From: Escherichia coli
GTDB lineage: Bacteria; Pseudomonadota; Gammaproteobacteria; Enterobacterales; Enterobacteriaceae
Assembly (NCBI RefSeq): GCF_050320075.1
Contig: NZ_CP190018.1
Length of the DNA: 64,000 nt
Reading direction: 5' to 3' (one strand)
Every line of letters begins with the position of its first letter. The first letter of the stretch is position 1. The position numbers and the translations under genes were made by a program. Below are positions 63,409 to 64,000 of this stretch, one piece after another. The notes below the pieces were generated by a model. The model ran no database searches and was not told the origin of the DNA. It saw only the letters and a list, made by a program, of their open reading frames with translations.

Positions 63409-63438
63409 AAATACATGATTAATATCAATCATGTATTT
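63409..63438. terminator. AT-rich perfect hairpin between convergent rclC and the aldo-keto reductase gene
   Basis: aaatacatgatt-aatatc-aatcatgtattt, followed by T-runs in both directions; overlaps the reductase stop codon. Confidence 0.5.
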
Positions 63439-64000
63439 TTACAGCAAGACAACCACGAACAAATTCAGGATTAAAATGTTTTACCGACTCCCCAACATAA
63501 CCCAAATCAAGCGAACTAATTTGTGCCATTTCTTTCTCTGTCAGTGAGAAATCCCAGATAGCAAAATTTTCTTCGATACGCTGTTGATGTGTCGATTTCG
63601 GAATAACGACCACTCCCCGTTGAATATTCCAACGCAGAATGACTTGAGAAATCGATTTTTGATGGGCATCTGCAATACTCTGAAGCAGATTATTTTCAAA
63701 GGGTTTATGTCGTCCACCACCTAACGGAGCCCATGCTTCAGGCTGCACGTTATAATACTTCATGGTTGCCAGCGCCTCTGGTTGGGCAAAATAGGGATGC
63801 AACTCGACCTGGTTGACCATCGGTTTAACTCTTACCGTTTCACAAAAGTTCGCCAGAACATGAGGATAGAAATTGGAAACCCCAATTGCTTTTAATTTGC
63901 CCTCTTCATAGGCATCTTCGAGTGCACGCCACGCACTGAAATAATCGCGCATAGCCTGGTGCAATAAATAGAGGTCGAAGTATTCTAGTCCCGATTTTTT
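63425..64000 (-). CDS. aldo-keto reductase family protein, C-terminal part (gene continues past the window end)
   Basis: Translation contains AKR motifs (KLKAIGVSNF, IPKSTHQQRIEEN); the frame stays open to position 64000. Confidence 0.8.
   Translation of the reverse strand, partial: KKSGLEYFDLYLLHQAMRDYFSAWRALEDAYEEGKLKAIGVSNFYPHVLANFCETVRVKPMVNQVELHPYFAQPEALATMKYYNVQPEAWAPLGGGRHKPFENNLLQSIADAHQKSISQVILRWNIQRGVVVIPKSTHQQRIEENFAIWDFSLTEKEMAQISSLDLGYVGESVKHFNPEFVRGCLAVKIHD

Follow-up and report, generated by a model that had tools for sequence, protein, structure and literature searches.

Genes at the rclC-proximal end of the window

The window analyzed here is a stretch of 64,000 nucleotides of the Escherichia coli contig NZ_CP190018.1, and its last gene crosses the window end. 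On the plus strand, rclB (YdgH/BhsA-like) and rclC (62672-63265; DUF417, E = 2e-80), the latter being the last gene of rclABC, are followed by a spacer (63266-63424) that leaves 159 bp between the stop codons of two convergent genes. The second of these genes, on the minus strand (63425-64000), is the 3' two-thirds of an aldo-keto reductase (AKR) gene, which was recognized by its open frame, by Pfam family PF00248 and by its identity to the genome of E. coli strain 746 (NZ_CP023353.1). Its stop codon occupies 63425-63427, and from there the frame remains open as far as position 64000, where the window ends. The resulting 191 codons correspond to residues 99-289 of a protein of 289 residues (codons 99-289 plus the stop codon), and about 294 bp of the 5' part lie beyond the window. 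The window fragment matched positions 97-289 of the 291-position Pfam model Aldo_ket_red (PF00248; E = 2.3e-28), and its score of 99.5 bits, compared with the cut-off of 24, places it within this family. An earlier note on this DNA, made from the letters alone, had described the C-terminal half of an aldo-keto reductase read from the minus strand after rclC. Both the open frame and the Pfam match bear out this reading well beyond chance, and the visible part is indeed C-terminal, but it extends to two-thirds of the protein rather than one half.

Two hairpins were found in the spacer between rclC and the reductase gene, with z-scores ranging from -4.2 to -5.1. The first is GC-rich and located at about 63299-63336, with a 10-bp stem (GGCGTCAGGC...GCCTGACGCC), a folding energy of -25 kcal/mol and a z-score of about -5. 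The second is an AT-rich perfect palindrome (63407-63440; 14 bp, -13 kcal/mol) that begins in the spacer and overlaps the stop codon of the reductase gene. A scan of the spacer for canonical intrinsic terminators found none, and both hairpins lack a canonical U-tract. With regard to base composition, the GC content of the reductase gene is 42.5%, and the whole rclA-rclB-rclC-AKR-ykgA block (about 60660-64000 in the window and beyond) has a GC content of 42-43%, compared with 47-55% in the flanking ykgEFG and fdeC genes. This low GC content fits the published binding of H-NS at rclC (PMC9546599).

The final 5 kb of the window are 100% identical to strain 746, as is a 1,338-bp query. There, the full gene has 870 bp, and its annotated product is an aldo/keto reductase of 289 amino acids (WP_001309281.1), so this identity over the last 5 kb suggests that the gene is intact in the window strain as well. 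A copy damaged in the part beyond the window, that is, a pseudogene, appears very unlikely. The 5' 294 bp are indeed outside the window and some strains carry an IS1 inserted in this gene (e.g. hit H31), but the 573 visible coding bases can be read through without interruption and contain every expected motif, and the last 5 kb exactly match a genome that carries the intact gene. Thus, the best explanation, to which we assign a probability of roughly 0.88, is that the window contains the 3' two-thirds of an intact gene for a 289-residue, monomer-type aldo-keto reductase of the DkgA/YvgN/YtbE kind.

The K-12 counterpart and the distribution of the gene in E. coli

In E. coli K-12 MG1655, rclC is followed by ykgQ (b4631, a 129-bp pseudogene), ykgA (pseudogene), IS3A, eaeH (pseudogene) and ykgP (pseudogene). 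When the window was compared with K-12 by BLAST, the ykgQ-equivalent stretch was found at 63425-63553 (minus strand; about 98.5% identity), which comprises the last 42 codons and the stop codon of the reductase gene. ykgQ is therefore the same gene at the same locus, with an equal distance to rclC (158-159 bp); however, 687 of its 870 bp have disappeared through two deletions and it encodes no enzyme, whereas the window copy is undamaged. One of the segments lost in K-12 has 100 bp and is flanked by 9-bp direct repeats (TGAGAAATC) at 63545-63553 and 63645-63653, as identified from BLAST boundaries and a repeat search. The other has 587 bp; according to BLAST it occupies 63694-64000 and continues for about 280 bp beyond the window, so that only the first 14 bp of the coding sequence are left on that side. 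The remainder in K-12 (183 of 870 bp) consists of the 14 bp next to the start, an internal piece of 40 bp and the last 129 bp, with 95-98% identity. All of these junctions were taken from BLAST coordinates, as a MAFFT alignment across both deletions misplaced the K-12 fragment.

It might be supposed that the reductase gene is a recent, strain-specific insertion in the window lineage and that K-12 shows the ancestral empty site. The low GC content (42.5%) would agree with this idea, and so would the unusually high identity to orthologues from distant gammaproteobacteria and their varied contexts, which point to horizontal mobility at some time. On the other hand, K-12 retains 14, 40 and 129 bp of the same gene in the same place, and 54% of complete genomes, divergent serotypes among them, carry the full form at 96-100% identity. 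We consider a recent insertion the least probable of the alternatives discussed here and rejected it on the basis of the remnant alignment: since both gene ends persist there in place, K-12 was derived by loss and not the window strain by gain. Thus, the difference from K-12 at this position is a known strain difference, the remnant of which has already been catalogued as ykgQ.

The reductase gene is not the only one in this region that has decayed in K-12. In strain 746, it is followed by a divergent and intact ykgA (285 amino acids), fdeC (4.25 kb), two further AKR genes, two LysR regulator genes, an alpha/beta hydrolase gene and a flavin oxidoreductase gene, and then by ykgR, ykgM and ykgO. 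In K-12, an IS3 (IS3A) insertion is accompanied by a 3.7-kb loss that took the 3' end of ykgA and most of fdeC, and a further loss of 6.2 kb took the two AKR genes, both LysR genes, the hydrolase gene and most of the flavin oxidoreductase gene, of which ykgP is the leftover 90-bp tail. In total, four separate lesions have occurred between rclC and ykgR (K-12 313,800-317,600 compared with strain 746).

These results clarify the difference from K-12. The earlier note had tentatively supposed different neighbours, with ykgA-type sequence instead of the reductase, and a possible strain-specific difference at the edge of the rcl locus. A real difference from K-12 does exist there, but the neighbours are not different ones, as K-12 holds the same gene in a decayed form. 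Similarly, ykgA is present in K-12, not as a replacement of the reductase gene but as the next gene along in both genomes; it is intact in strain 746, which matches the window, and cut by IS3 in K-12. Alignment thus located the same reductase at this position of K-12, although only as a dead remnant. Finally, it is K-12 that differs, and the gene is by no means peculiar to the window strain, as shown by its distribution in the population.

The full reductase region was detected in 2,926 of 5,426 complete E. coli genomes, including O157:H7, O55:H7, O111 and O25b:H4-ST131. The exact K-12 double junction was present in 2,092 genomes with an identity of about 99-100% (161-bp junction probe, coverage of at least 80%), which include all K-12 laboratory derivatives and O6:H16, and about 360 had no match. 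Two clusters of proteins (2,681 and 468 members) with 289 amino acids and 99% identity indicated that intact copies are common. The window therefore shows the majority state: the gene is the common condition in E. coli and K-12 is the derived one. Some individual genomes showed other features. An IS1 element was located inside the reductase gene in strain SCU-313 (NZ_CP051694.1, H31), a separate and independent IS1 inside rclC in strain PEC41 (NZ_CM168023.1, H23), and nine matches to this region came from records typed as plasmids.

Predicted properties of the encoded protein

By sequence, the protein is a member of the AKR superfamily. It could be aligned to 155 AKR sequences from the PDB at E <= 1e-20, and the alignments of the full protein were nearly end to end for Thermotoga maritima TM1009 (1VP5, '2,5-diketo-D-gluconic acid reductase'; E = 3e-85), Bacillus subtilis YtbE (3B3D; E = 5e-73), B. 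subtilis YvgN (3D3F; E = 1e-67) and E. coli DkgA (1MZR; E = 4e-58). From these end-to-end alignments to solved barrels, we infer that the protein adopts an (alpha/beta)8 barrel fold. The catalytic tetrad (Asp44, Tyr49, Lys78 and His112) aligns with the corresponding residues of 1VP5, and of these four only His112 is encoded within the window. The translation also contains IPKSTHQQRIEEN at residues 230-242, inside the window, which forms a K-S-x4-R-x2-E-N motif (K232-S-x4-R238-x2-E-N242). In other AKRs this motif holds the 2'-phosphate of NADPH, and its counterpart in AKR1B1 is K262...N272.

Two E. coli AKRs, DkgA (YqhE, AKR5C2) and DkgB (YafB), which are methylglyoxal and 2,5-diketo-D-gluconate reductases, share with this protein the family, a similar length, the tetrad and the NADPH motif. 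In contrast with them, the window protein has a C-terminal extension of roughly 20 residues and is encoded at another locus. Its scores fell well below the cut-offs of both NCBIfam equivalog models, i.e., 235.5 bits against 425 for DkgA (NF008598) and 163.8 bits against 327 for DkgB (NF008377), and therefore it should be regarded as a distinct AKR and a copy of neither. Sequence identity was 39.7% with K-12 DkgA and 32.5% with DkgB, and it reached 44% with the second AKR encoded in the same gene cluster. TM1009, YtbE and YvgN are the best solved relatives, though they come from different phyla, and 1VP5 is a structural-genomics entry with a putative name only, which makes the transfer of its function to the window protein uncertain.

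YvgN and YtbE are NADPH-dependent reductases of glyoxal, methylglyoxal and aromatic aldehydes. By analogy with these two enzymes and DkgA, NADPH-dependent carbonyl reduction is the most likely mechanism of the window protein. It would be a detoxifying enzyme of broad specificity that converts reactive aldehydes or ketones to alcohols with NADPH as the reductant, and its likely substrates would be dicarbonyls of the methylglyoxal or glyoxal type and aromatic aldehydes, as in the characterized relatives. Such a role in detoxification is suggested by relatives that are about 40-55% identical, and the sequence holds no hint of unusual chemistry. A literature search (ykgQ, ykgA together with aldo-keto reductase, TM1009, and rclC together with aldo) did not find a study of this enzyme.

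Orthologues, possible regulation and the surrounding cluster

Orthologous proteins with 80-86% identity were found in Klebsiella, Enterobacter, Kluyvera, Salmonella salamae, Vibrio and Marinomonas. When the neighbourhoods of the orthologues in these six genera and on one further contig were compared, all of them were different, and none of those in the six genera had an adjacent Rob-like regulator or rcl genes. Conserved neighbourhood was thus rejected as a functional clue, as each context differs and lends no support to a link with either rcl or YkgA. The close similarity between proteins of distant genera, combined with the GC content of the gene (42.5%) and of the block around it (42-43%), suggests an old horizontal movement of the reductase gene, which leaves the conclusion for E. 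coli (loss in K-12) unchanged. The contig of Salmonella enterica subsp. salamae had an additional feature: a Rob-like regulator of 283 amino acids (HTH_18 plus GyrI-like) adjoins an inverse-autotransporter (IAT_beta) gene (L010, 10402-12870), and this pair, located 3.5 kb from the reductase orthologue, echoes the ykgA-fdeC pairing of E. coli. This arrangement hints at a possible association of YkgA with the adhesin instead of the reductase.

Direct adjacency to rclC raises the idea that the reductase contributes an accessory function to the RclR/rclABC response to reactive chlorine, for example by reducing aldehydes derived from chloramines, and that the two are neighbours by virtue of shared function. 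Wherever the gene occurs in E. coli, it directly adjoins rclC, and the rclABC-AKR-ykgA block shares the same low GC content. However, the reductase gene is not co-oriented with rclABC but lies on the opposite strand, and since it is convergent with rclC and separated from it by two strong hairpins in the 159-bp spacer, it is not on the rclABC transcript. Moreover, the orthologues in Klebsiella, Enterobacter, Kluyvera, Salmonella, Vibrio and Marinomonas have no rcl genes nearby. The Rcl system was defined in K-12, where it works without this reductase gene. A role of the enzyme in the Rcl response therefore seems improbable, even if somewhat less so than a damaged copy or a recent insertion.

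YkgA itself consists of an AraC-type helix-turn-helix domain (HTH_18) and a GyrI-like ligand domain, and it resembles Rob over its full length, with a score (195 bits) below the cut-off. It has been described as the fourth paralogue of MarA, SoxS and Rob, with no targets identified up to 2007 (PMC2064960), and it is reported to be absent mainly from strains of phylogroup A (PMC9220930). As a divergently transcribed Rob-like regulator, YkgA may control the reductase gene, and such a regulator-target pair is plausible. A search for the marbox (AYNGCACNNWNNRYYAAAY, up to two mismatches) found no site in the 247 bp that separate the reductase gene from ykgA (L002, 13633-13879); the marbox is a consensus for MarA, SoxS and Rob and may not be YkgA's own site, so this result is compatible with control by YkgA. 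Across the whole locus, six marbox-like sites were counted, compared with 7.0 expected by chance. The only site with one mismatch in this 25-kb locus was located upstream of fdeC, about 215 bp before its start (L002, 19327-19345), and it carries no weight alone because the count over the locus was at chance level. The regulatory link between YkgA and the reductase is weakened by the fact that this pairing is not conserved in other genera.

It is conceivable, although rather doubtful, that the reductase and the divergent YkgA form an uncharacterized module for electrophile or carbonyl stress. Adjoining rcl, this module might add tolerance to oxidants or aldehydes in wild E. coli. If so, its lack of study would be explained by the destruction of the reductase gene in K-12 and in about 39% of sequenced strains; an intact ykgA is likewise missing from K-12.

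The preferred reading, an intact gene for an AKR of the DkgA/YvgN/YtbE kind, agrees with what has been published about this region. The interval 'LSU rRNA L31p..rclC' has been described as genomic region GR 3, or 'fdeC cluster', of about 13 kb and absent from K-12 (PMC12928451). Its content was given as five reductase-like and three regulatory genes, and fdeC was named there, with the reductases mentioned only collectively (PMC12928451). The gene analyzed here is the rclC-proximal member of this roughly 13-kb cluster, which lies between rclC and ykgM, and it is thus an ordinary, annotated and intact chromosomal accessory-core gene in an already published variable region. K-12 should be considered a decayed reference for the interval between rclC and ykgM, and studies of the rcl region, YkgA or fdeC are better carried out in a strain with an intact cluster. 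Compared with the GR 3 (fdeC) cluster of ExPEC, AIEC and other non-K-12 E. coli, the reductase gene in the window shows no difference and is part of it.
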